This document shows positions 31,600 to 47,871 of a stretch of DNA of 64,000 bases, piece after piece (position 1 is the stretch's first letter; each line of letters opens with the position of its first letter). Under the pieces are notes generated by a model that worked only from the letters and a program-made list of their open reading frames with translations, had not been told where the DNA came from and searched no databases. Location of the stretch: positions 94,044-158,043 of the forward strand of contig CAVZNX010000014.1 of assembly GCA_963776795.1 (NCBI GenBank), written 5' to 3'. The position numbers were made by a program, and so were the translations under genes. Origin of the DNA: an uncultured Chloroflexia bacterium (GTDB taxonomy: Bacteria > Chloroflexota > Anaerolineae > Anaerolineales > UBA4823).

Positions 31600-32925
31600 T
31601 GGGATATCTCCTGCCTTGAAGGATCTTCAAATCTCGCAAAATGCCGATGAAAAACTAACCTTGCTACCCCGGTCGGCCCATTGCGGTGTTTTGCAATGAT
31701 GATCTCCACATGATCTCGGGAGCCCAAGCTCATCCGGATAGTAGATGAACATCACGAGATCAGCATCCATCTCGATGCTGCCCGATTCTCGCAGGTCACT
31801 CAGCAGCGGGTGCTTGTCAGCGCGCTGTTCAACCGCCCTTGAGAGCTGCGCAGCAGCCAGCACCGGAACATCCAGCTCGCGTGCCAATGTTTTCAGCTGG
31901 CGGGTTATATAGGAGACTTCCTGGACGCGGTTGTCAAAACGCTCTCCTGCACTGACAAGCTGGAGATAGTCAACAACAACCAGATCAAGTCCCTTTCTAA
32001 AGAGAGCTTATGGCAGGCTGAGCGGATCTGATTGATACTGACGATTGAGGTGTCATTCACGAACAACGGTACTTTCTGCAGCAGTTCGATCGCCTCACCA
32101 TATCGGCGCTTTTCATCGACTTCCAATTTTCCTGAACGCAGGCGTTGGACATCCATGCTGATCTCCTGGGCGATCAGGCGCTGGGCAAGCTGCTCACCTG
32201 ACATCTCCAGGGTGAACAAGGCGACTCTTTTTCTTTCTTTGACGGCCACATTCCTGATGATGGAAAGCAATAAGCTGGTCTTGCCTGTCCCAGGCCTGCC
32301 CGCAATGATCCCCAGGTCTGAAGCCTGCAGCCCACCAACCAGTATGTCCAGTTCACAAAATCCAGTTTGCAAACCGGGCTTGTCAGCTTGACCGGGATGA
32401 TTGATGACATTTTCATCCACGGTACTCAAGTATTTCAGATAGAGACTTTATGCCAAGTGAAGGCCTGCCCTGGCGGATTGATGAGATGGTCCTTTCGGTC
32501 TCCTGGATCACCTCTTCCATATCCGTGCCCTTGCTGTGAGCAAGCTTGGCGATACGGCTGGCGGCTTCAAGGATGTGTCTACGCGTGGCCATATCCTTGA
32601 TGATCTGTGCATACGCACCTGCATGCAGGGAGGTTGGAACCTGGTTGATCAATCCGGTCAGGTACGCTGTACCACCAATCTCATTAAGTTTCCCTGCCTG
32701 GTCAAGCTCGTCCGTGATCGTCAGGAAATCGAGCGGAATTTGGCGCTCCTGGAGCCGGGTAATGGCCTCCCAGATGAAGCGATGACGATGGATATAGAAA
32801 TCACCTGGCTGGATCACCTGGGCAACCGAGTGGTATGCATCTGGATCGATGAGTACCGCCCCGATGACAGCCTCTTCAGCTTCAACGCTATATGGGATGG
32901 ATTTCGGCTTCGGTTCTGATTCCAT
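31596..32925 (-). pseudogene. dnaB: Replicative DNA helicase DnaB, about 3 frame shifts
   Basis: N-terminal domain IPYSVEAEEAVIGAVLIDPDAY (32413..32925). Walker A IIAGRPGTGKTS (31905..32429). [13 protein letters not shown]...[19 protein letters not shown] (31627..31887). A hand-translated tail [13 protein letters not shown] ends at the TGA at 31596-31598. Confidence 0.85.
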
Positions 32926-34648: not shown

Positions 34649-37021
34649 TCATGCCCTGACTCGCACCAAAATAGCCGTCCCTGATCCTGGAGAAGCAACA
34701 ATGCTCATCTCTGCCCCGATCATCGCAGCCCGTTCTTTCATCCCAAGCAGCCCGTAGTGGACGCCTCCCCATAGCCCTCCCTGCTCCGACATACCGATAC
34801 CGTTATCTTCGATGCGGACTTCAAGAATACCGTCGTCCCGCTGAGCCGTGACGGTGACATGGTCAGCCTGAGAATGTTTCAAGGCATTGGTAAGCGATTC
34901 CTGGACGATCCGGTAGATCGATGTCGCCTGTTCGTCAGTAAGCTTCAGATCCCCACTCAGCTTATTCCGCCACAGGATGGCGGTATCGTCTGCAGCGATG
35001 TCTTGCATGCTACTGATCAGATCCTGGAGGGCCAGGACCAACCCACGGTCAAGCAAGCTCGAGCGCTGTGCCTTGATGGTCTGCCTGAGGTTGGCGATCG
35101 CCTGGTCTATGAAAGACACTGTCTCCCGGATCGGACCTGGCCAGGCGCTGTTTTACAAAGAACAGGTTCTGCAAGACCGTATCATGCAGATCACGGGCGA
35201 CCTTTTTCCGCTGGTCCTCATCCGAACGCACCATCTGCTGGGTTAATCCCCTCAGTTCTTCCGCATGGATGATATTGGCGATGGTCAAGGCAGCCTGCTG
35301 GCTGACCGTCTCGAGGATCTGCAGATCCTGGCTTGAATAGACTTCTCCTGATGACCGCTCTCCAAGGATCAGCACGCCATACAGGATATCCTGGTGAAGG
35401 ATCGGCACCAGAACCTGGGCCCAGGAATATGCATCCCAACGCTCAAAAGATCCCTGGCTGACCGTATTCCACAGGCTTTGGGCAAGCACAGGCTTGCGGT
35501 AACTGACCAGCGCATTACAGACTTCATCATCCGGAAGGACCGAAAAAGACCCGGCATCCAGACCCTGGCTTTCGAAGTGGTCGCCCGATGCTAAAAGCAG
35601 CTCACTCCTGGAGATGTTCATCTTCTCCGGCAGCATACAGGTCAGCAGGTCAATAAAGTCCTGACGATCAACGGTCTGGGCCAGGCGGCTGGACAGGTCG
35701 GAGGTTACCGAGGTATAGTCATAATAGCTGTCCGTACAGCACCCGGTCGACCTGCATCTGCACCCGTTTCTGCAAGCTGGCTGAGGGTAAAGCGACCAGC
35801 ACACACAGCAGAGATCCTGCGATCACCAGTTGGACCGGCTGGTCAAACAACCTGGATAGTACGCTTAACACACAGAAGGACAGAAGCAGGACGGATAGGA
35901 TCAGTAAGAACAACACCAGCACCCGGTTGATAATAAGATCGACCTTGAGCAGCTTCCGCTGGTAGATCACATAACCATATGCGATCGGGATAAAGATCAG
36001 GGTCAGGCTGCTGATATTGCTCGGAACCAGGATGTATTCGCTCCCAGCTCCAAATACCAGGCGGGGAAAGCCGCTCAATACCAGGAAAGGCAGGAAACCG
36101 ATCAGGGTTCCAAGGAAGACAATATTGATCTGCCTTTTGATATCGCCATCCCTGGTAAGGAAGCGGTTCTTCAGCAGCAAGCCGATATCCACCAGGATGG
36201 ATAAATAAAAGACAATACTGATCACCCTGAACATGGTGGAAGAGGCTGGATTTTGGTTGGCGACTTCCAAAGAACCTGTTCCACGATATAGGCGATCCCC
36301 AGCAAAACCGAAACAGCAAAGGCACCATAGATCAGCAGGCTGCGAGTCCTGGATGAAAAAGAAGGCACCGGGAAATACAGGTGGGCAGCGGTGGCAAAAA
36401 AGATCGCGGCGGTAAAGGAAAGCATCGCCACATTGGGGGCAAACCAGGCGCAGCTCCAGTAACCAGGCCCCGTGGCTGTTAATGCCACACCTGCCAGCAC
36501 CCAGGCGATGCCGACCAGGCGCCCTCTGACCTCGGAAGCTGGAGAAAAGAACAGCAGGACCAATCCAAGCAGGGTAATGATCAGGGAAAGCACCTGAACC
36601 GGGAGGACTTCCAGCAGGTAATTGGGATATTGAAAATAGCTACCCACCCGAACAGGGATCGAAAGGGTTGCCCCACCTCGTTCGATCACATATACGCTCT
36701 GTTTCGCCTGCGCCCTTTGGTCGATGGACCGGGACATTTAGATCTGAAATGATATTTCCATCGATCGAAAGGACCCTATCCCCCACCTGCTAATCCAGCC
36801 TGCTCTCCAGGCCCACCGGGATCAAGGCTTGATATCACCGCGGAGTTCTGCTGGGAGTCCTGGTAGTCCAGCCACACCCCAGTGACCGGCACGAAGATGT
36901 AATAGGCTGCGTTATAGAACACGACCGCACAAATGGCCAGGAGAGCAAATCCGACCAGGAAACCGTTGCTGGTAACGAAACGGATCAGCCTGGGATAGCC
37001 TGGTTCAGGAGGGATCGCCAT
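34649..37021 (-). pseudogene. Sensor histidine kinase: TM anchor, PDZ-like domain, multi-TM block, GAF, HisKA_3, HATPase_c; about 4 frame shifts
   Basis: 36776..37081 has LDPGGPGEQAGL (PDZ-like). 36222..36737 and 35719..36270 are polytopic. 35049..35804 has a GAF-like region plus the H-box ARDLHDTVLQNL. 34649..35119 has the N/G boxes QESLTNALKHS...IEDNGIGM...GLLGMKERA. The start at 37021 overlaps the upstream gene by 17 nt. Confidence 0.75.
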
Positions 37022-40057: not shown

Positions 40058-41632
40058 CTATGCCAGGCTGTACAGCATCTGGCCCAGCTTTTCAGCTAAG
40101 CTTTCCCCATCCTGGCAGTTGACCAGGCGGGTGAACAGCATTTTCAGTTTGGATAGTGTTCCCCTGCCGAGATGGATACCGATCGGTATGAAACCGCCCT
40201 GTTCAAGGCTGCGCAGGTGTGCCTGGGACAGCTCCCAATCAGAAGCACTTTTCGACCTGTAGACCGGTTCACCATCATGGATGATGAGCAGGACACGCAG
40301 GCGTTCAGGCCGCTTGCGCAGCTCTGCTTCCGCCTTACGCAAGCCCCAGTCCAGGTACTCTTTGCTCGCCCAGGCCGTATAGCCTGCGATGAGGGCTTTG
40401 GCAGCTTCCTGGCTGTTGCTCGAAATAGGGACCACTTCAGACACCACCCTTTCGACCGGGATCCGTTCCGGCTGCAGGGATAGGCCACCCCGGTCGAGGT
40501 TATCTTCACCGAAGTAGGCCATGCCAAGAGGGATCCCCGCCTGCATCGCAGCCAGGTAGATGGTCATCAAGGCTTCACGGACCGCGGGTTCATAGAGATT
40601 CATTGAACCGGAACGGTCCACCAGGACGTAGAAAGCCAGGCTGCGGGCTGCTTTTCCTAAGTAAGTGGTGCCAGGTGCGGCGTATCCGGCGTGCGGATCT
40701 CCTGGCGGAAGCTGTACCGGCCATGGTACTCGTGCGGTGCAGGGCGCTGGTCAGGAGCCTGTTCTTTCAAGGCATCAGCCAGGCGTGCAGCATGTGCCTG
40801 GACCCTTTCCTCCAGCTCCAGGTAAGGGGCTGGCTCAAGCGCCTTTTTACTGCTGGGCACAGGTGGCAGGTCGCGGTCTTGCAGGTCACCACCCAGACCG
40901 GGGCTGAGATCGGCAGGTCCCTCTGGGATCGAGCATGGCCTGCCCCCTTTTTTGGGAATTCCACCCGCAGAGATATGCTCCAGGCCAAGGCGAGGCATGG
41001 AGGCGGGTAATGCCTAAGGTTTCCAGGATCTTGCGCCCGGCGGCGATCACCCTGCCGGTATCCGAGGCAGTCCAGGACTGCTCGACCAGGTCCCGGATCT
41101 CCGCCCACAGCTTCTGGCCTTCCTGCGAAACTTTCAGATGGGTGAACATTTCCTGCTCACCGGTGCGCGCATGCGCCCAGCGCCAGGCCAGGCAGCAGGC
41201 ATACGCCTGGAGGTTCGCAGCTGCAGGGACAGCCTTCATGTCGGCATAGATAAAGTCTCCCAGCAAGCGCACCGCTGGTGCGATCCCAGGATAGAGCTTG
41301 CAGATGCCTCGCTCGACACGCTCGTCTTCCAGGATATTCGCGAGTTCCTGCAGGATATTCTCAGACTGGTCCGGCCAATCGCTGGTGAACCAGGCATGCC
41401 CGCATTCATGGGCCAGCAAGCCCTGGGTGAGGCGGAACTGCACATCCACGGGTTGTTCAGGGAACAGCTGCGGGTTGACCTGGATGAGCCGGGTCAGGGG
41501 TGAGTGGGTTCCAGTCCCTTCAGGCTGCAGGCGGATGGTGTAGCGCCGCCCGGAAAGCAGCGCCAGAGCCCATTTGGTGAGCCTCTCGTTGGTGAGGCGC
41601 CAGAGCCACCATAGTTGTCTTTGATCAGCCAT
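40058..41632 (-). pseudogene. HExxH metallopeptidase-like domain fused to a vWA domain (DUF2201-type architecture), 2 frame shifts
   Basis: 40886..41632 has NPQLFPEQP...GLLAHECGHAWFT. The linker is in 40657..40998. Hand translation across 40621 gives LAFYVLVDRSGSM, a MIDAS DxSxS motif, continuing in 40058..40621. The start is 9 nt after the AAA+ stop, with AGGAG. Confidence 0.65.
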
Positions 41633-41641
41633 GGGTAGCTC

Positions 41642-42604
41642 CTAGAGTATCGCCAGGCTGGCCAGGTAATCCTCCAGCCCCTTGAACGAACCCTGGTTGA
41701 TGCGCCCGGTATGGTCCCGCCCACACACGATATCCGCCCAGGAAAGCTTTGCCTGCTGCATGACCCCATCGAGCGTCCTGGTCGTGTTCGATTCGCATTT
41801 TCTGGCCCAGTTGAGGAGTGTGGCCGTGTCGATACAGCCAGGCATCTCTCCATTGGCCATCAACCGGCGGGTCTCCTGGGCCAATTTCACAAGCGATTGG
41901 CTCGTGCCACTGTCCAGGCGGGCAGCCTCCCGCCGCAGCAGGGACAGCTCATCGTCATACTCCAGGTAGTCAAACTCGATCACGGTATCGAACCGCCTGC
42001 GCACCGCTGGGTCAAGGTCGTAGACCTGATAAAGGCGGCCGAAGTTGCCCGCGGCTACGATACGCAGGGTTTTAACCGGGCAGAGCACGACCTCACCTGT
42101 CAAGGGGACCTCAACGACATAGTAGCAGCCTGGCTGATGGACATCCAGTCCCATCTGGCGGCAGGCCTCCCCGGTTTTGGGATTCATCAGGCCCAACAGG
42201 ATGTTCAGGTGGGGACGAGGGATGCGGTTCACCTCATCGATGAACAAAAGGACAGGCTCGAGATTGGCCTGGCGCATGGCGCGCAGCAGGGGTCCATCCA
42301 CCCATTTCCGGCTGCCATCTTCCTGGGGCAGGATCGCCCCAATGAAGTCCAGATCGGTCAGCCCTTCCTTGCCTTCGATCACCACCAGGAAAAAATCCAT
42401 ACTCGCCACCACCTGGTGGAGCGCATACGTTTTTCCTGATCCCGTAGGCCCGGCCAGGAGGATATTATCCCCAGAACCGAGAGCCGCTGCCAGGGCACCC
42501 ACCTGCCATCCAACAAAACCGCTGGCTTGACTAGGCTGTTCGGCCTGTGGCGAAGCAACTCTCTGGTTTGGGATCATCTCCTTCAAGCAGTGTACGCAGT
42601 GCAT
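41642..42604 (-). CDS. AAA+ ATPase, MoxR/CbbQ/NorQ-like (AAA_5)
   Basis: Walker A ILLAGPTGSGKTY. Walker B LLFIDEVNRIPRPHLNILLGLM. DPAVRRRFD sensor/arginine region. 320 aa. Confidence 0.8.
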   Translation of the reverse strand: MHCVHCLKEMIPNQRVASPQAEQPSQASGFVGWQVGALAAALGSGDNILLAGPTGSGKTYALHQVVASMDFFLVVIEGKEGLTDLDFIGAILPQEDGSRKWVDGPLLRAMRQANLEPVLLFIDEVNRIPRPHLNILLGLMNPKTGEACRQMGLDVHQPGCYYVVEVPLTGEVVLCPVKTLRIVAAGNFGRLYQVYDLDPAVRRRFDTVIEFDYLEYDDELSLLRREAARLDSGTSQSLVKLAQETRRLMANGEMPGCIDTATLLNWARKCESNTTRTLDGVMQQAKLSWADIVCGRDHTGRINQGSFKGLEDYLASLAIL

Positions 42605-44947: not shown

Positions 44948-45145
44948 TCACTCCTCTGAAAAAGACTGGTCGTCTTGATACTCCTGAATGGTCTCCTGGA
45001 TGGAAAGCCATTCAGGCATTCGCCTGGGCCTGAAGTATGCCAGGATGTTCTTCCCGGATCGAAGCATCAAAGTGAGCGCCAGGGTCCAGAAGCAGGCGAC
45101 CAGAATCCCTGCCAGGCAGATGAACAGCATTACGGCTTCTCTCAT
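44948..45145 (-). CDS. Small single-pass membrane protein (65 aa)
   Basis: GGAGG RBS 6 nt before the ATG at 45145. MREAVMLFICLAGILVACFWTLALTLMLR. The longer listed ORF (to 45274) would run through a terminator hairpin. Confidence 0.45.
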   Translation of the reverse strand: MREAVMLFICLAGILVACFWTLALTLMLRSGKNILAYFRPRRMPEWLSIQETIQEYQDDQSFSEE

Positions 45146-45237
45146 GGTTGCCTCCAGTGTATTTTTGATATCTTTTTTTACGGTACTGCTGCGAATGGGA
45201 GCATCCCATTCGATGCAGCACAAAATACCCCTTTTCC

Positions 45238-45491
45238 TCAAAAAAGTGGAGAGAGGCGGATGGCCTCTCTCCATGGCGGGGACCGCCGCAGCTCACCAGT
45301 CTCGTCCAGGGATTCAGACCCTCGCAGGAGACTGGATCGCGAAGTCTCCCGACTGACGGGTGTGATCAAACCAGGAGGAGGGATGGAGGTTGCTCTCGCC
45401 CGCAGATGTCATACTCCAGGGCGATAGGTTATCCAGCAGGGATCGAACCTGCTCATGGACGGCATGCGTCCAGTGTGCACCAGCCGGATAA
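45238..45491 (-). ncRNA. Candidate ~250-nt ncRNA: 5' tRNA-like module (45428-45491) plus structured body plus intrinsic terminator (45238-45273)
   Basis: Minus strand: acceptor TTATCCG/TGGATAA (7 bp, one G-U). T-arm GCAGG-TTCGATC-CCTGC. Anticodon-like arm TGGAC-GCATGCC-GTCCA. The D-arm region is only 12 nt. Terminator GGAGAGAGGC-CATCC-GCCTCTCTCC followed by ACTTTTTT. Confidence 0.45.
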
Positions 45492-45527: not shown

Positions 45528-46316
45528 TTACCGTTTGGTGTACTGGATCAGTTTTTGGGCGACCAGGCACGTCTGGGCATAGGCGGCCCAGACCTCATCG
45601 GGAGCCTGGCCATCGGATAGGTTCGCCAGCACGCTGGCCTGGTGGGCTGCGATCAGGAAGGAACGCAGGTTCTCTGAATAGATACGGCTTCCCAGGGAAC
45701 CTGATACCCGGATGCGATCCTTAAGTTTCAGGATGACAGCCCGCCCGTCCACCCGCTGGTCCAGGAACTGGACCGTCACATAATGGGGTGTCCGCCGTTC
45801 CCGCCCATGGTTGCCAGCTGCAGGGGTGGAGGCGGTGTGCCGGTCGTAAACGGCCAGGCGTAGAAAAAGGTGCCCACCATATTCCCAGACCCTGGCCACC
45901 ACGCCATCGACGCGGGCGAAACTTGCAGGTGAAAACCTGGCCGGATCCAGCAGCTCCAGGGTCTCCGGGACGACACAGGTCACGGAGCGTTTGACCTGGG
46001 CGCTCGAGGCAGCCAGCAGCTCAGGGATGCGTTTGACAAGCTCCTCTTCCCGGGCTTTGAGCAGAAAATCGCGCAGGGTCTCCCACTGGGGGAGGTCATC
46101 CAGGTAGCCAGTGATGTGTAGCGCGTCGCCTTTCAGCAGGCTGACATCCCGCCCACCGACCTGGCCTCCAGGCAGCCTCAGGGTCAGCCGTGGGTCGACC
46201 TGGTTTGGGATGGTGTCCAGCTCTTTTTCTGCATCCGTTGCACCGGTATCGATACGGGCGAAGACATCCCCGGTCGAACGGGACCAGATCTTGGTCACAT
46301 GGCCTGCCAGGTCCAC
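45528..46316 (-). CDS. Double OB-fold SSB-like protein
   Basis: 262 aa with a GTG start. An AAGGAGG ~70 nt upstream suggests a frame-shifted longer N-terminus. Second half: HYVTVQFLDQRVDGRAVILKLKDRIRVSGSLGSRIYSENL, an SSB-like pattern. The first half is analogous (LAGHVTKIW...LLKGDALHITGYL). Confidence 0.4.
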   Translation of the reverse strand: MDLAGHVTKIWSRSTGDVFARIDTGATDAEKELDTIPNQVDPRLTLRLPGGQVGGRDVSLLKGDALHITGYLDDLPQWETLRDFLLKAREEELVKRIPELLAASSAQVKRSVTCVVPETLELLDPARFSPASFARVDGVVARVWEYGGHLFLRLAVYDRHTASTPAAGNHGRERRTPHYVTVQFLDQRVDGRAVILKLKDRIRVSGSLGSRIYSENLRSFLIAAHQASVLANLSDGQAPDEVWAAYAQTCLVAQKLIQYTKR

Positions 46317-46604
46317 CTGGTTGCAGTCATAGCGTTCGGGGGCAGCAGATGGTAATAAATCGTGGGGTGATCAAATCAAAATACCTCCTTGGTGGATCCC
46401 CAGGCAAGCCTTTTCATTGATCGACCTGCCTGGGTCTCAAAAGTAATAATGAACATTACAATGATTGCAATCGCTTGAAAACGGTCTCAATTGTTAAGGT
46501 TCGTGTCATCCTGTAAACAGGTCCACTTGATCAGTGACCTGCCAGATCCTTGAGAGAGGGAAGGCAGGTGGCCTTCCCTCAGGCACGCTGCGCAAGCGGA
46601 CGGG

Positions 46605-47459
46605 TCAGGCAGGCTGCAGCTCGGCCTCGACGAAAGCCAGGTACTTGCGGGCCGCAGCCTGGTCCAGGCGGGCCTGTTCCGTGGCTGGTTTCATTTCATT
46701 CGCATACCAGCGCAGTGCAGCCAGGCCAGCGTCAAGACCGCGCGGGTTCTCCTTGACCAGCCTGTGTAAGCTCCAGCCGGAGTAGGCCTTCCCGTAGCGG
46801 ATCAGGTATGCACCAGGATCTTGATCAGGCTGTACGTCAGGCGCAGGCACGGGTTGCGCGGGGTCGTCAAATCCCAGTTCTTTCAGGATCTCACCTCTCG
46901 ATCTGGGGATCTTAGGACCACTGCCATTGTTCCCATCACCATGCCCGGGGGGATGTGGGCTGTTGCCATTCCCACCCGGTTGAGAGGCTGCACCCAGCAG
47001 CAGGCTGGCATTATGGTGGTCAAGCTGCCCTTTATATACCGGCAGCTGGAAGCACAGCGACTTGAGGGCTGCACCGATCGCGGCCGTGCGCGCCCCTTCT
47101 TCAGCGTAAGCAAAATCATTGGTGTTGGCCCCACCGGTGATGATGGGGTACCAGTTCACCAGGTCCTGCTCGTTGATCAGGGCATAGCTGAAGACTGCGT
47201 ACTTCAGGTGGGCGGTGACCCGCTTGCCCTCACCCAGCCCGATGAACACCATGTCCTCCGGGCTGTATTCCAGCTTCCAACCCAGCCCGCGCAGGCCGAA
47301 GACCTGGGTGGCGCGCTCGATCATGTAGCCGGTGTTGATGTCTGTCAGGTCAGCACCGCCGGGCACACCCCGATAAGCCTGCGGCTCGAAAGGCAGGGCC
47401 AGCCTGTCCACGATCTGGCTGACCGGTATGCCGGTCAGCGAAAAGAGCTTGTCGTTCAT
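46605..47459 (-). CDS. Rad52/22-family single-strand annealing protein (phage recombinase-like)
   Basis: DINTGYMIERATQVFGLRGLGWKLEY parallels the Rad52 [20 protein letters not shown] block. EEGARTAAIGAALKSLCFQL parallels KEAVTDGLKRALRSFG. Gly/Pro-rich linker and C-terminal tail. GGAGG RBS. Confidence 0.55.
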   Translation of the reverse strand: MNDKLFSLTGIPVSQIVDRLALPFEPQAYRGVPGGADLTDINTGYMIERATQVFGLRGLGWKLEYSPEDMVFIGLGEGKRVTAHLKYAVFSYALINEQDLVNWYPIITGGANTNDFAYAEEGARTAAIGAALKSLCFQLPVYKGQLDHHNASLLLGAASQPGGNGNSPHPPGHGDGNNGSGPKIPRSRGEILKELGFDDPAQPVPAPDVQPDQDPGAYLIRYGKAYSGWSLHRLVKENPRGLDAGLAALRWYANEMKPATEQARLDQAAARKYLAFVEAELQPA

Positions 47460-47647
47460 GATTGATTACCTCCTGAGGTAGACCGCCCCTGCAATGAGAG
47501 GCGGTGGATAGGAACACCTCTCGCTGCAAGGATGGAACTGCCTGGCGGATGTCAGGATCTACTCGCCCAGAACTACAGACCGGTATCGTCCGTCTCTTTG
47601 CATGTTAAGGTGCCTTGCGTGATCCGCATCTAGCGGACCGATCGCAG

Positions 47648-47693
47648 TCAACCTCCCGGGACTCGAACCCGGGTTCAGGCCTGCCCGAGGTTG
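47648..47693 (-). ncRNA. tRNA-like minihelix (acceptor stem plus T-arm only) at the 5' end of the Rad52-like gene leader
   Basis: Minus strand: CAACCTC-GGGCAGGCCTGAAC-CCGGG-TTCGAGT-CCCGG-GAGGTTG-A. Perfect 7-bp acceptor, canonical T-loop with the G53-C61 pair. No D arm or anticodon arm. Confidence 0.45.
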
Positions 47694-47871
47694 AATAAGT
47701 TTATATTCCTATCCCAATGCATCGCACTTAAATGACCTGGAAGAAGCGGTTTTGCCATGGCCAGGTTGGCACGGGCGCCTTGGTTATCACCAGACGCAGT
47801 CCCGATCGATCCTGGTAAGACAATATAACCATCCTCTGCCACTTGGTGCACGGCTTTCGGCCATTGCCTGC

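Follow-up and report, generated by a model that had tools for sequence, protein, structure and literature searches.

tRNA-like elements in the intergenic gaps of an Anaerolineae mobile element: candidate processing marks, one of which heads a conserved terminated RNA

INTRODUCTION

That tRNA-like structures punctuate transcripts is textbook knowledge in the case of mitochondria, with a few further examples among eukaryotic and viral RNAs, and RNase P needs only the acceptor/T minihelix. RNase P cleavage of MALAT1 generates the 3′ terminus of the RNA lying upstream and also frees a tRNA-like piece (mascRNA). Mobile elements also carry regulatory RNAs that RNase P matures from longer transcripts, namely the C4 RNA of phages P1 and P7 and the CI RNA of P4, which base-pair as antisense RNAs with targets close by on the element that encodes them. 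In plant mitochondria, non-functional tRNA-like structures (t-elements) lie beside or between the genes of polycistronic transcripts and are cut by RNase P and RNase Z, which sets the mRNA ends (PMC1920247). Bacteria and phages encode YrlA, a non-coding RNA in which one domain imitates a tRNA acceptor, D arm and T arm; its gene lies no more than ~4 kb from that of Ro60 (TROVE), on the same strand, and the YrlA of M. smegmatis is cut by RNase P and tailed with CCA (PMC4201824).

Here we analyse a tRNA-like-headed RNA element in a window of 64 000 nt, by which we mean the whole stretch of DNA that was analysed, from an uncultured Chloroflexia bacterium. A preliminary description, made from the letters of the window, had proposed either a stand-alone structured RNA or a tRNA-like punctuation signal. 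The host group, the Anaerolineae of sludge, sediment and digesters, is abundant and poorly studied. We know of no case in which tRNA-like punctuation is an organizing principle of a bacterial mobile element, and the literature that we searched holds no description of one.

RESULTS

Architecture of the tRNA-like head

Over ~250 nt, positions 45491–45238 of the minus strand hold a tRNA-like module followed by a structured body and, at the end, an intrinsic terminator. The 64-nt element of the preliminary description, said to begin 36 nt past the stop codon of an SSB-like gene, does so (TAA at 45530–45528), and its acceptor, T arm (GCAGG-TTCGATC-CCTGC), 12-nt D region and lack of an encoded CCA are all as had been reported. 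The parts of the head are as follows.

45429..45491, minus strand: tRNA-like head (sequence, model R1 and covariation on alignments A4 and A6; ARAGORN and Rfam negative)
45491–45486, minus strand: 5′ strand of the acceptor, UUAUCC
45485–45476, minus strand: D-like segment GGC-UGGU-GCA, degenerate in the window copy
45472–45456, minus strand: variable 'anticodon-like' hairpin
45453–45435, minus strand: T arm, AGCAGG-UUCGAUC-CCUGCU
45434–45429, minus strand: 3′ strand of the acceptor, GGAUAA; CCA not encoded

Across the family the head consists of a 6-bp acceptor with, immediately after it, a 3-bp D-like hairpin that has UGG as its loop, and of a 6-bp T stem with the loop UUCGAUC. Three features of the preliminary description hold for the window copy and need restating for the family. 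The 7-bp acceptor (TTATCCG/TGGATAA) is present in the window, where its seventh pair is G–U and the head can be read as either 6+6 or 7+5 bp (acceptor plus T stem), but has 6 bp family-wide. The missing D arm is indeed a stretch of 12 nt in the window, but corresponds to the 3-bp D-like hairpin of relatives, degenerate here. The anticodon-like arm (TGGAC-GCATGCC-GTCCA in the window) ranges among relatives from 0 to ~45 nt and is absent from L008, L016 and L026; to judge from these comparisons, the 'anticodon arm' is a dispensable variable hairpin outside the conserved design.

The window head scored 74.9 bits (E 2e-17) against model R1, which was built from relatives. In A4, a MAFFT alignment of heads, 98.1 % of cells are paired and 6 pairs carry compensatory changes; none of 500 shuffles reached the observed value, and slid controls gave 30–49 %. 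In A6, comprising 26 model-aligned elements, compensatory changes occur in 11 of 15 pairs. Covariation across A4 and A6, in 6 to 11/15 pairs, thus strongly backs a tRNA-like head, and with it the earlier proposal of a structured RNA, which is conserved and includes a true tRNA-like module. The heads of a divergent subgroup (group B) have no D-like hairpin, and their T loop (UCGCU) is non-canonical, so that tRNA mimicry is not universal in the family.

The main heads, and a second family described below, each have 6+6 bp of acceptor and T stem, i.e. the coaxial stack of ~12 bp capped by a T loop (UUCGAUC or UUCGAGU) that defines a minihelix. The 7-bp acceptor and 3′ RCCA of RNase P substrates are not found in the family, in which the nucleotide at −1 of the head is not conserved and the 3′ flank of heads and mimics reads N-CUAUCG or A-CUGC, that is, no RCCA.

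Comparison with known RNA classes

ARAGORN found no tRNA or tmRNA gene in the window; a cmscan of the window against Rfam 15 gave no match at the gathering threshold and no tRNA match in the region even at E≤10, and Rfam gave no match in nine relatives at E≤1. The sole weak Rfam match, to Plastid-ycf2 on the opposite strand (23.8 bits vs a threshold of 65.7), falls on the reverse complement of tRNA-like sequence. These searches, which the preliminary description had called for, returned no tRNA, tmRNA or other Rfam family and so argue against an ordinary tRNA. Indeed, a tRNA gene was rejected on the negative ARAGORN and Rfam (RF00005) results, a D arm of at most 3 bp and an anticodon arm that is variable or absent in relatives. 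Anticodon identity is not shared among orthologues, whose loops differ in sequence and length; marginal ARAGORN tRNA calls in L019 and L025 have the anticodons CGU and UGC, and L028 and L003 were not called.

A kinship with YrlA or tmRNA was not borne out by ARAGORN and Rfam. For tmRNA, a contiguous tRNA-like domain also speaks against it, as does the lack of a conserved reading frame, which follows from indels among relatives that are not multiples of three. For YrlA and other bacterial Y RNAs, a Pfam scan detected no TROVE domain in the neighbouring proteins, and Rfam was without a match (window, E≤10; nine relatives, E≤1). A protein-coding reading of the region was discarded on the same indels and on the ORFs themselves, as those on the plus strand (44975–45427 and 44988–45356) and one of 33 codons on the minus strand are not conserved. 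The element does have the GC-rich hairpin and U-run of an intrinsic terminator. On these comparisons we regard it as a new RNA family, absent from Rfam 15.

Body, CU tract and terminator

Downstream of the head, the following features were recognized.

45396..45424, minus strand: hairpin P4, UCGCCC...GGGCGA, on the 3′ side of the head, from which the linker CCUA separates it (single-sequence fold)
45373..45389, minus strand: CU-rich tract CCUCCAUCCCUCCUCCU, anti-Shine–Dalgarno-like (conservation)
45289..45364, minus strand: near-invariant body core CACACCCGUCAGUCGGGAGACUUCGC...GAGACUGGUGAGCUG (alignments A2 and A7)
45275..45287, minus strand: small hairpin GGCGG-UCC-CCGCC just before the terminator (fold and consensus); missing in L004
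45238..45273, minus strand: intrinsic terminator GGAGAGAGGC-CAUCC-GCCUCUCUCC followed by a U-run (terminator scan)

Single-sequence folding of the element gave a modest z-score (−2.4 to −2.8). P4 shows CG/UA/UG exchanges in relatives (RNAalifold consensus, pairs 87–118 to 99–107). The CU tract, predicted to be single-stranded or paired with downstream GA-rich segments, is shared by the main group, by group B and by L020 and L021, and is absent from L023; most members conserve it as UCUCCUCC. The core admits two mutually exclusive pairings, either CCCG/CGGG plus CCAGUCUC/GAGACUGG, or CGGGAGACU/AGUCUCCUG, both of which are compatible with the alignments (90.8 % and 94 % of cells paired); neither has significant covariation (shuffles reach the observed values), and since the body sequence is too conserved its fold is not resolved by covariation. 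Altogether the body holds three GA-rich and three CU-rich segments that are able to pair in mutually exclusive ways. By eye, the core resembles the 1400 region and anti-Shine–Dalgarno tail of 16S rRNA, a likeness that has no support from Rfam and to which we give no weight.

The terminator lies where it had been placed, although its stem (45273–45247) has 11 pairs rather than 10, 7 of them G–C, and is followed by CTTTTTT. It is kept in relatives, and L004 shows compensatory changes in it. A proposed antiterminator, in which the CU tract pairs with the 5′ arm of the terminator, appeared in the truncated folds of only ~5 of 13 members. Nucleotide identity is 75.8 % for the RNA vs 73.8 % and 69.0 % for the flanking coding sequences; we count an identity at or above that of the flanking genes in favour of purifying selection on the element.

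Neighbouring genes and intergenic features

The surroundings of the element include the following.

45528..46316, minus strand: gene upstream of the element for a 262-aa SSB-like protein with two OB folds (AlphaFold2 and Foldseek)
44948..45145, minus strand: downstream gene for a 65-aa single-pass membrane protein, MREAVMLFICLAG... (synteny by tblastn in 15 loci)
45187..45219, minus strand: hairpin in the spacer that runs from the terminator to the ribosome-binding site of the following gene; sequence varies among relatives
46461..46517, minus strand: promoter-like hexamers upstream of the SSB-like gene (consensus scan; putative function)
46556..46580, minus strand: GA/CU hairpin GAGGGAAGGC-CACCU-GCCUUCCCUC after the 284-aa gene, without a U-run
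47649..47693 (widest 47644–47698), minus strand: second tRNA-like minihelix, between the 429-aa and 284-aa genes (models R1 and R2)

The AlphaFold2 model of the 262-aa protein (pLDDT 89.6) has two OB folds, and its top Foldseek matches are the two-OB SSBs of Deinococcus and Thermus (E about 1e-7); as modelled, the protein is SSB-like by fold, in keeping with its first naming. It has 68 homologue clusters, some of them named PriB by JGI. Sequence searches of Pfam, PHROGs, NCBIfam and the PDB found nothing for the 262-, 284- and 429-aa proteins, the 65-aa membrane protein matched no Pfam or PHROG family, and a neighbouring 217-aa protein has a weak Pfam SSB match. The island further encodes DnaB and a histidine kinase and contains split genes; relatives also have DnaN and RadC. 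The mobile element consists almost wholly of proteins without a known family.

The membrane-protein gene has a conserved ribosome-binding context, ACACUGGAGGCA. The hairpin preceding it, first placed at 45191–45215, exists and is slightly wider (about 45219–45187). The hairpin after the 284-aa gene (46556..46580) belongs to the type seen in the terminator stem and in the hairpins ahead of tRNA-like elements in relatives. A conserved motif, GAACCUUAACAAUUGAGACCG (46502–46482), lies partly inside the promoter-like stretch, and recurs in relatives and upstream of the 284-aa gene (47613–47589).

Conservation and layout in relatives

We found the element in every one of the more than 20 related Anaerolineae loci whose sequence continues past the orthologous gene, namely 13 distinct copies in the main group (counting that of the window), five loci of group B, and L020, L021, L023, L026 and L027. 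The conservation and covariation that the preliminary description had set as a check were therefore found, the element being in every locus and its head covariation significant. The gap between the stop codon of the SSB-like gene and the head is only 0–77 nt, with the stop codon overlapped in L021, 1 nt away in L023 and 8 nt away in L026, and a gap this small leaves no room for a promoter in front of the head. A hairpin ends 2–6 nt before the acceptor in L001, L002, L007 and L016. In some relatives a terminator-like hairpin with a U-tract stands right before the head, by which co-transcription with the SSB-like gene would be lowered.

In group B the distance from the T-run of the terminator to the next start codon is ~24–26 nt (L019 and L025), ~30 nt (L003) or ~55 nt (L029). 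In L019, L025 and L003 so short a gap has no room for a promoter, and the next gene would be expressible by read-through only. This spacing points to a role, probably as a cis-acting leader or attenuator, that was not among the options of the preliminary description. In the main group 95–110 nt separate the terminator from the next gene, enough for an unseen promoter to sit there.

BLAST searches of phage and plasmid collections found no similar DNA, and pattern and protein searches of IMG/VR were without a match; a phage or plasmid origin was set aside on these empty searches.

Further tRNA mimics in the same element

The second minihelix of the window reads CAACCU-CGGGCAGGCCUG-AA-CCCGGG-UUCGAGU-CCCGGG-AGGUUG, and is followed by ACUGC and a conserved structured leader. 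It was found with model R1 at E 1e-3 (filters off) and with R2 at E 1.5e-8. Syntenic copies with compensatory changes in both the acceptor and the T stem occur in L004, L006, L011, L026 and L027; L023 has a copy at this position, outside the scored set, and model searches found syntenic copies in L013 and L014 as well. Group B has mimic copies after the membrane-protein gene, L021 has one after a Pfam-SSB gene, and L020 has three to four mimics. Relatives carry two to four mimics, all of them on the sense strand, intergenic and often just after a hairpin. A third candidate, between the TadE-like and 240-aa genes (L006 11863–11937, E 0.07–0.3), has a D-like hairpin and an unconvincing T arm and is not counted.

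DISCUSSION

A proposed model of punctuation and gated read-through

Our best reading is that the mimics are a new bacterial variant of tRNA-like punctuation, with the processing itself as what we infer. They suggest an element that may use the cell's tRNA-cutting enzymes to cut its long transcripts, and the presence of mimics in other intergenic gaps, in the window and in relatives, lends this reading a support that was unexpected. For the RNA studied here in particular, we see about an even chance that it is the 3′ part of the SSB-like transcript, composed of a tRNA-mimic processing mark and a body that gates read-through.

Considering the architecture, conservation, head covariation and recurrence described above, we infer cleavage by RNase P and RNase Z, a switch and its input signal in the following manner. 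The 6-bp acceptor stacked on the 6-bp T stem gives the 12-bp length of a tRNA minihelix, and the UGG loop of the D-like hairpin could form a tRNA elbow with the canonical T loop UUCGAUC. RNase P would cut at the 5′ edge of the head and, since CCA is not encoded, RNase Z may cut after the 3′ edge. A cut at the head would separate the upstream mRNA from a discrete RNA, and in many relatives that mRNA would then end in a protective hairpin; the mimics in other gaps may extend such punctuation across the mobile element. The 190-nt body and terminator would set the level of read-through to the gene for the small membrane protein and those that follow it, for which the neighbouring SSB-like protein, by binding the CU tract in its single-stranded state, is one possible input. 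The fullest form of the model, in which the intergenic mimics recruit host RNase P and RNase Z and one of them launches a 190-nt invariant riboregulator that senses a trans factor (possibly the SSB-like protein) and gates a membrane-protein operon, is tentative and we regard it as somewhat doubtful.

Other explanations

The discrete unit with a strong terminator at its end could instead be an independent small RNA that acts in trans, transcribed either from a promoter of its own or by read-through, with a CU tract that recognizes GGAGG ribosome-binding sites in target mRNAs by pairing and a head that is only a stabilizing or protein-recruiting 5′ domain and no cleavage signal. C-rich seed regions targeting ribosome-binding sites are an established mechanism of Gram-positive small RNAs and offer a precedent, the CU tract is conserved in most members, and the invariant core suggests a sequence-specific partner. 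We nevertheless think this unlikely, given that no conserved promoter precedes the head (upstream gap down to 0–8 nt), that short-word BLAST of the window and long loci for antisense targets or direct repeats of the RNA or the extra mimics in their own locus gave only chance-level matches, that L023 lacks the CU tract, that a next gene ~24–30 nt past the terminator in L019, L025 and L003 better fits a leader, and that the other intergenic mimics would be left unexplained. The pseudo-tRNA reading, i.e. a decaying tRNA gene or a phage-type tRNA damaged by assembly indels, appeals to the tRNA-derived look of the T arm and acceptor, to the split genes, DnaB and histidine kinase of the island and to the marginal ARAGORN calls in L019 and L025. 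It is effectively refuted by the comparative data: the same non-canonical design, with compensatory changes, is shared by more than 20 independent assemblies, which excludes the assembly damage that had initially been allowed for, and the anticodon arm is variable or absent, with differing 'anticodons' where orthologues are called at all.

Two explanations at the level of DNA also need to be weighed. tRNA and tmRNA genes are classic integration sites, and tyrosine-integrase genes with variable cargo (Abi, toxin–antitoxin, acetyltransferase) lie 1–3 kb downstream of the RNA in L006, L021, L025 and ERZ1426837, so that the elements might be tRNA-gene mimics serving tyrosine integrases as attachment sites, with islands or cargo integrating alongside. 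However, no direct repeat of the tRNA-like elements occurs elsewhere in the window or the long loci, compensatory changes keep acceptor strands paired 45–80 nt apart, which an attachment site does not need, the elements hold fixed syntenic positions within a conserved gene block, and the membrane-protein gene stands between the RNA and the variable cargo; attachment sites are accordingly improbable in our view. A structure in single-stranded DNA, such as a site of single-strand initiation or of primosome assembly, or else a single-strand promoter during ssDNA replication or transfer, might be considered for a locus with SSB-like genes on both sides (262 aa and, by its weak Pfam match, 217 aa), with PriB names among the 262-aa homologues, and with DnaB in the island and DnaN and RadC in relatives. 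But the conserved loop is the strand-specific T-loop consensus of tRNA (UUCGAUC), the hairpin and U-run at the end are an RNA signal, G–U pairs are tolerated at several sense-strand positions and every copy is co-oriented with the genes, all of which makes such a structure highly improbable.

Returning to tRNA-like punctuation, should RNase P or RNase Z cut the mimics, they would represent a new way in which mobile DNA hijacks an essential RNA-processing pathway of its host. They would then also provide a compact natural set of minimal RNase P substrates, of 45–65 nt and without an anticodon arm, and add to the structured RNAs a family outside Rfam 15 that has an unusually invariant core with a putative partner.

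Relation to known systems

Of the described systems, plant mitochondrial t-elements share with the present mimics that several of these are likewise intergenic and on the sense strand. The differences are that here a bacterial mobile element and not an organelle is concerned, with cleavage that is proposed from the sequences, that the mimics are minimal, made up of a minihelix of 6+6 bp with a short D-like hairpin and, optionally, an extra arm, and that a conserved body of 190 nt with a terminator follows one of them. MALAT1 and MEN-beta likewise have a tRNA-like module after a stabilizing structure, comparable with the hairpin before the mimic in many relatives; theirs are eukaryotic nuclear RNAs with an upstream triple-helix stabilizer, whereas the RNA of interest here lies downstream of the mimic, not upstream.

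YrlA is similar in having a tRNA-mimicking domain in a non-coding RNA, but here there is no nearby Ro60/TROVE gene, GNCGAAN0-1G motif, Ro-binding helix or Rfam match, and the tRNA-like part is contiguous at the 5′ end instead of closing the molecule. With tmRNA the element shares an acceptor and T arm, a D region without a normal D stem and foreign RNA in the place of the anticodon arm; it differs in having no CCA, G3–U70, tag reading frame or pseudoknot ring and no ARAGORN call, and in a body that follows the tRNA-like domain rather than being enclosed by it. The C4 and CI RNAs share with the present RNA their place in mobile elements and, in our proposal, maturation by RNase P; the hosts differ, and neither antisense complementarity nor an Rfam match was found here. 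Finally, attenuators and riboswitch platforms (trp-type, T-box) differ in that we recognized neither a leader peptide nor a ligand pocket nor a tRNA-binding specifier here and that the antiterminator pairing lacks covariation support; they resemble the element in their mutually exclusive pairings, terminal intrinsic terminator and position before a gene.

Layout of the RNA and its conservation

Re-reading of the minus strand bore out every feature of the preliminary description, which had taken 45238–45491 for a terminated RNA with a tRNA-like head. The 262-codon ORF (46316–45528) stops with TAA, the head starts 36 nt beyond, and a G+C-rich stretch of ~150 nt lies downstream of the head:

45491–45428, minus: head, UUAUCCG-GCUGGUGCACAC-UGGAC-GCAUGCC-GUCCA-UGA-GCAGG-UUCGAUC-CCUGC-UGGAUAA; CCA not encoded
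45273–45238, minus: terminator, an 11-pair hairpin and then CUUUUUU
~45219–45187, minus: further hairpin, between the terminator and the next gene
45145, minus: ATG of the 65-aa membrane-protein gene, preceded by a ribosome-binding site

An ordinary tRNA or tmRNA gene was dismissed by ARAGORN (0 tRNA and 0 tmRNA over the whole window). Rfam 15 gave no match at gathering thresholds, and at E<=10 the sole, weak match was Plastid-ycf2 on the opposite strand, a mirror image of tRNA-like sequence. Since single-sequence folding gave only a modest gain over shuffles (z -2.4 and -2.8), the case depends on comparison with relatives.

Related loci (those with L numbers) were collected through homologues of the 262-aa protein, which form 68 clusters, every one metagenomic or from an Anaerolineae MAG, and through the invariant RNA core; the latter query (CACCCGUCAGUCGGGAGAYUUCG) found 14 loci in metagenome contigs, and IMG/VR, phage and plasmid collections yielded none. 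Gene order is conserved (TadE-like, TadE-like, 240-aa, 429-aa, 284-aa, 262-aa, RNA, membrane protein), and the RNA is present in all loci whose DNA runs beyond the 262-aa gene. Its nucleotide identity (75.8 %) equals or slightly exceeds that of the coding neighbours (73.8 and 69.0 %), and its length differences among relatives are not multiples of three, so the region is non-coding.

The head is a tRNA mimic

In the main group (13 distinct copies, including the window) the head has the consensus CCAUCC / CGC-UGGYN-GCG / variable hairpin / GGCAGG-UUCGAUC-CCUGCC / GGAUGG. Acceptor strands exchange CC, CU or UU opposite GG, AG or AA (CUAUGC/GCAUAG in L027), the D-like stem alternates between CGC/GCG and CAC/GUG, and in the T stem GGCAGG is replaced by GGCCGG or GGCGGG, the partner strand matching each time. 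In an unbiased MAFFT alignment of 14 sequences 98.1 % of cells in the head are paired, with both-sided changes in 6 of 15 pairs; none of 500 shuffles reached this pairing, and slid registers pair at 30–49 %. Because the 'anticodon arm' ranges from 0 nt (L008, L016, L026) to ~45 nt (L004, L017) and its loops are unconserved, we regard it as an expansion hairpin. Conservation lies in the 'top half' of tRNA: a 6+6-bp acceptor/T helix (as long as the 7+5-bp helix of tRNA), together with the T-loop consensus and a D-like loop containing GG that could form a tRNA elbow. The window head is slightly eroded, with a G-A mismatch in the D-like stem and G7 paired with U instead, and still scores 74.9 bits against R1, the covariance model of the head. 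The head is not itself a tRNA but a mimic of one that is under selection, and we are close to certain that the element is a selected, tRNA-mimicking structured RNA.

The body of the RNA

The body, 3' of the head, comprises a P4 hairpin with exchanges, GAGAGCAA and a CU-rich tract, an invariant block, a small hairpin and the terminator. The block is invariant over 26 nt (87 % identity over 79 columns) and includes GGGAGACU, CCAGUCUCC and GAGACUGGAGAG, of which the middle one can pair with the segment on either side. RNAalifold favours CCCG/CGGG together with CCAGUCUC/GAGACUGG; single-sequence minimum-energy folds mostly favour CGGGAGACU/AGUCUCCCG, and in these the CU tract is paired with GGAGAG. 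Both pairings are retained, by eye, in divergent members (L023, L026 and the divergent subgroup, group B), and covariation supported neither, because there is too little variation. Given that the CU tract pairs with the terminator 5' arm in about 5 of 13 members (folds truncated before the 3' arm), a terminator/antiterminator switch is plausible but unproven. The strict conservation of the body's sequence argues for its recognition by a putative sequence-specific partner.

The RNA also carries CCUCCU (CCUCCUU in relatives), GAUCAC and CACACCCGUCA...GGGAG (window 45364–45340 and 45389–45366, minus). By eye these segments resemble two parts of 16S rRNA, its anti-Shine–Dalgarno tail and its 1400 region, which may be coincidence; Rfam gave no SSU match for the RNA.

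Genomic setting

The element sits in a ~22-kb block of G+C ~0.58 surrounded by DNA of ~0.42. Nearly all block proteins lack a known family, the exceptions being two TadE-like pseudopilins, a split DnaB, an AAA_5 ATPase and a 217-aa protein with a weak SSB match. The 262-aa protein had no sequence match in Pfam or PDB; its AlphaFold2 model (pLDDT 89.6) has two OB folds and is matched best by Foldseek to two-OB SSBs from Deinococcus and Thermus (E about 1e-7), so the 'SSB-like' label given to the gene in the preliminary description is correct.

DnaB appears as two ORFs (N- and C-terminal domains) and a histidine-kinase-like gene as several overlapping ORFs (window 31905–32925 and 34649–36737, minus), reflecting either a decaying island or frameshift errors in assembly; the RNA itself is unbroken except for its weakened D-like stem. 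An AAA_5 (MoxR/CobS-like) ATPase gene is followed by those of an HExxH protein with a weak PHROG peptidase match and a 187-aa protein, VWA-like by eye and with no family match (window 41642–42604, 40886–41632 and 40058–40621, minus); the trio is kept in L003 and L027.

Beyond the module formed by the RNA and the membrane gene, on its downstream side, lies a variable cargo zone (L006 791–6711; L021 8708–12776; L025 3421–5369; L019 1–1179) with genes for tyrosine integrases, Abi_C, AbiEi/AbiEii, MazE, acetyltransferase, C39 peptidase, RadC, DUF6908 and DnaN, which points to a hotspot of accessory or defence genes. In L015 a group II intron (589–873; Rfam RF02001 133.7 bits, RF01998 65.3 bits) lies ~85 nt past the RNA terminator, the usual place of the membrane-protein gene, in agreement with the known tendency of certain bacterial group II introns to insert behind terminator-like hairpins.

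Mimics recur between other genes

Searches with R1 and its iteration, R2, found further elements, without exception intergenic and on the gene-sense strand; the window's host flanks gave no match. The second window mimic lies between the 429-aa and 284-aa genes:

47693–47649, minus: CAACCU / CGGGCAGGCCUG / AA / CCCGGG-UUCGAGU-CCCGGG / AGGUUG; R2 E 1.5e-8

It has syntenic counterparts in L004, L006 (with L014 identical), L011 (with L013 identical), L023, L026 and L027; their acceptors differ widely, each with a matching partner (CAACCC, CAGCCC, CUGCC, GCGACC, CAUCUU), and their T stems also covary. In group B (L003, L019, L025, L028) a mimic closely akin to the main-group head (CAUCCC/GGGAUG; CGC-CUGGCA-GCG in L028) lies 3' of the membrane-protein gene; ARAGORN marginally called two of these four as tRNA-Thr and tRNA-Ala, with mismatched acceptors and differing anticodons, and missed the others. 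L021 has a mimic after a bona fide SSB gene, and in L020 three occupy consecutive gaps and a fourth follows the 262-aa homologue. Compensatory change affects 11 of 15 pairs over 26 model-aligned elements, in an alignment that is fitted to the model and favours pairing.

A stable hairpin lies within a few bases 5' of many mimics, often with a GA-rich 5' side, a CU-rich 3' side and a YAYCC loop. Such hairpins (loops CACCU, CAUCC, UACCC) recur after genes and directly before tRNA-like elements, only some being followed by a U-run, and may be a motif specific to the element that binds protein or protects ends:

Window, minus: 46580–46556, 47522–47496, 45273–45247
Relatives: L019 7553–7575, L025 3298–3320, L021 11470–11500

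The entire gap between the 429-aa and 284-aa genes forms a second conserved structured RNA, whose CCUCCGGAGGU falls at the ribosome-binding site of the 284-aa gene:

Window, minus: 47440–47700
Relatives: L004 6084–6392, L006 9499–9748, L011 6477–6747, L027 53–278
Parts in order: minihelix; ACUGCGAAAGG and hairpin; motif GGCACCUUAACAUGCAAAGAGACGG (window 47613–47589); long helix GAGACGG...CCGUCUCCCCUUGCAG; hairpin; CCUCCGGAGGU

Proposed production and use

The distance from the 262-aa stop to the head is 0–77 nt (stop overlapped in L021; 1 nt in L023, 8 nt in L026), and no conserved promoter was found in this gap. Upstream of the 262-aa gene there are promoter-like hexamers and a conserved motif (46517–46461). 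The motif (G/C)(A/C)ACCUUAACA-N5-GAGAC(C/G)G stands upstream of both the 262-aa and 284-aa genes (window 46502–46482 and 47613–47589, minus), in relatives too, and near the 262-aa gene is followed by a conserved UGCAAUCAU similar to an extended -10 sequence. The motif is a candidate promoter or operator of the element.

The simplest reading is co-transcription of the RNA with the SSB-like gene as one unit (promoter, SSB-like gene, RNA, terminator), and a discrete RNA consequently needs an endonucleolytic cut. RNase P recognizes the tRNA minihelix, and we suggest that it would cleave at that of the head, releasing the RNA from the SSB-like transcript; hairpins just 5' of mimics would then be left at the 3' ends of the upstream mRNAs as protectors and, with no encoded CCA, RNase Z might cut the 3' side of the mimic. 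YrlA is a precedent for RNase P acting on a tRNA-like bacterial RNA (PMC4201824), and t-elements for processing at tRNA-like elements (PMC1920247).

From the end of the terminator T-run to the next start codon, group B has ~24–26 nt (L019, L025), ~30 nt (L003) or ~55 nt (L029), and the main-group spacer is 95–110 nt. At the ~24–30-nt spacing of L019, L025 and L003, in these loci at least, the next gene would have to be read through the terminator, and the RNA would thus act at least partly in cis, as a gate. A candidate input is binding of the two-OB SSB-like protein to the single-stranded CU tract, modelled on T4 gp32 and M13 gene V protein, which regulate mRNAs. For the full mechanism we put the chances at about even.

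A purely trans-acting small RNA, which we consider improbable, would leave unexplained the missing promoter, the other mimics and the group-B spacing, and a search for targets in cis found none. The integrase-bearing cargo 1–3 kb downstream in several loci would suit mimics that serve as integrase attachment sites, but no mimic is repeated elsewhere in the loci, and attachment sites are not expected to evolve by compensation. A structure acting as ssDNA is made less likely by the U-run, by a T-loop consensus specific to one strand and by the tolerance of G-U pairs. The comparative data rule out a decayed tRNA or an assembly artefact, and with them the normal tRNA damaged by assembly indels that the preliminary description had allowed for.

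Relation to known systems

The element, which Rfam 15 does not contain, is a new RNA family; no description of it was found in the literature searched. Its closest bacterial counterparts are YrlA and the tmRNA tRNA-like domain, and it lacks what defines membership of either. In function the nearest parallels are tRNA punctuation in mitochondria, the t-elements of plants and the MALAT1/mascRNA device; if processing is confirmed, the element would also be a new bacterial variant of tRNA-like punctuation.
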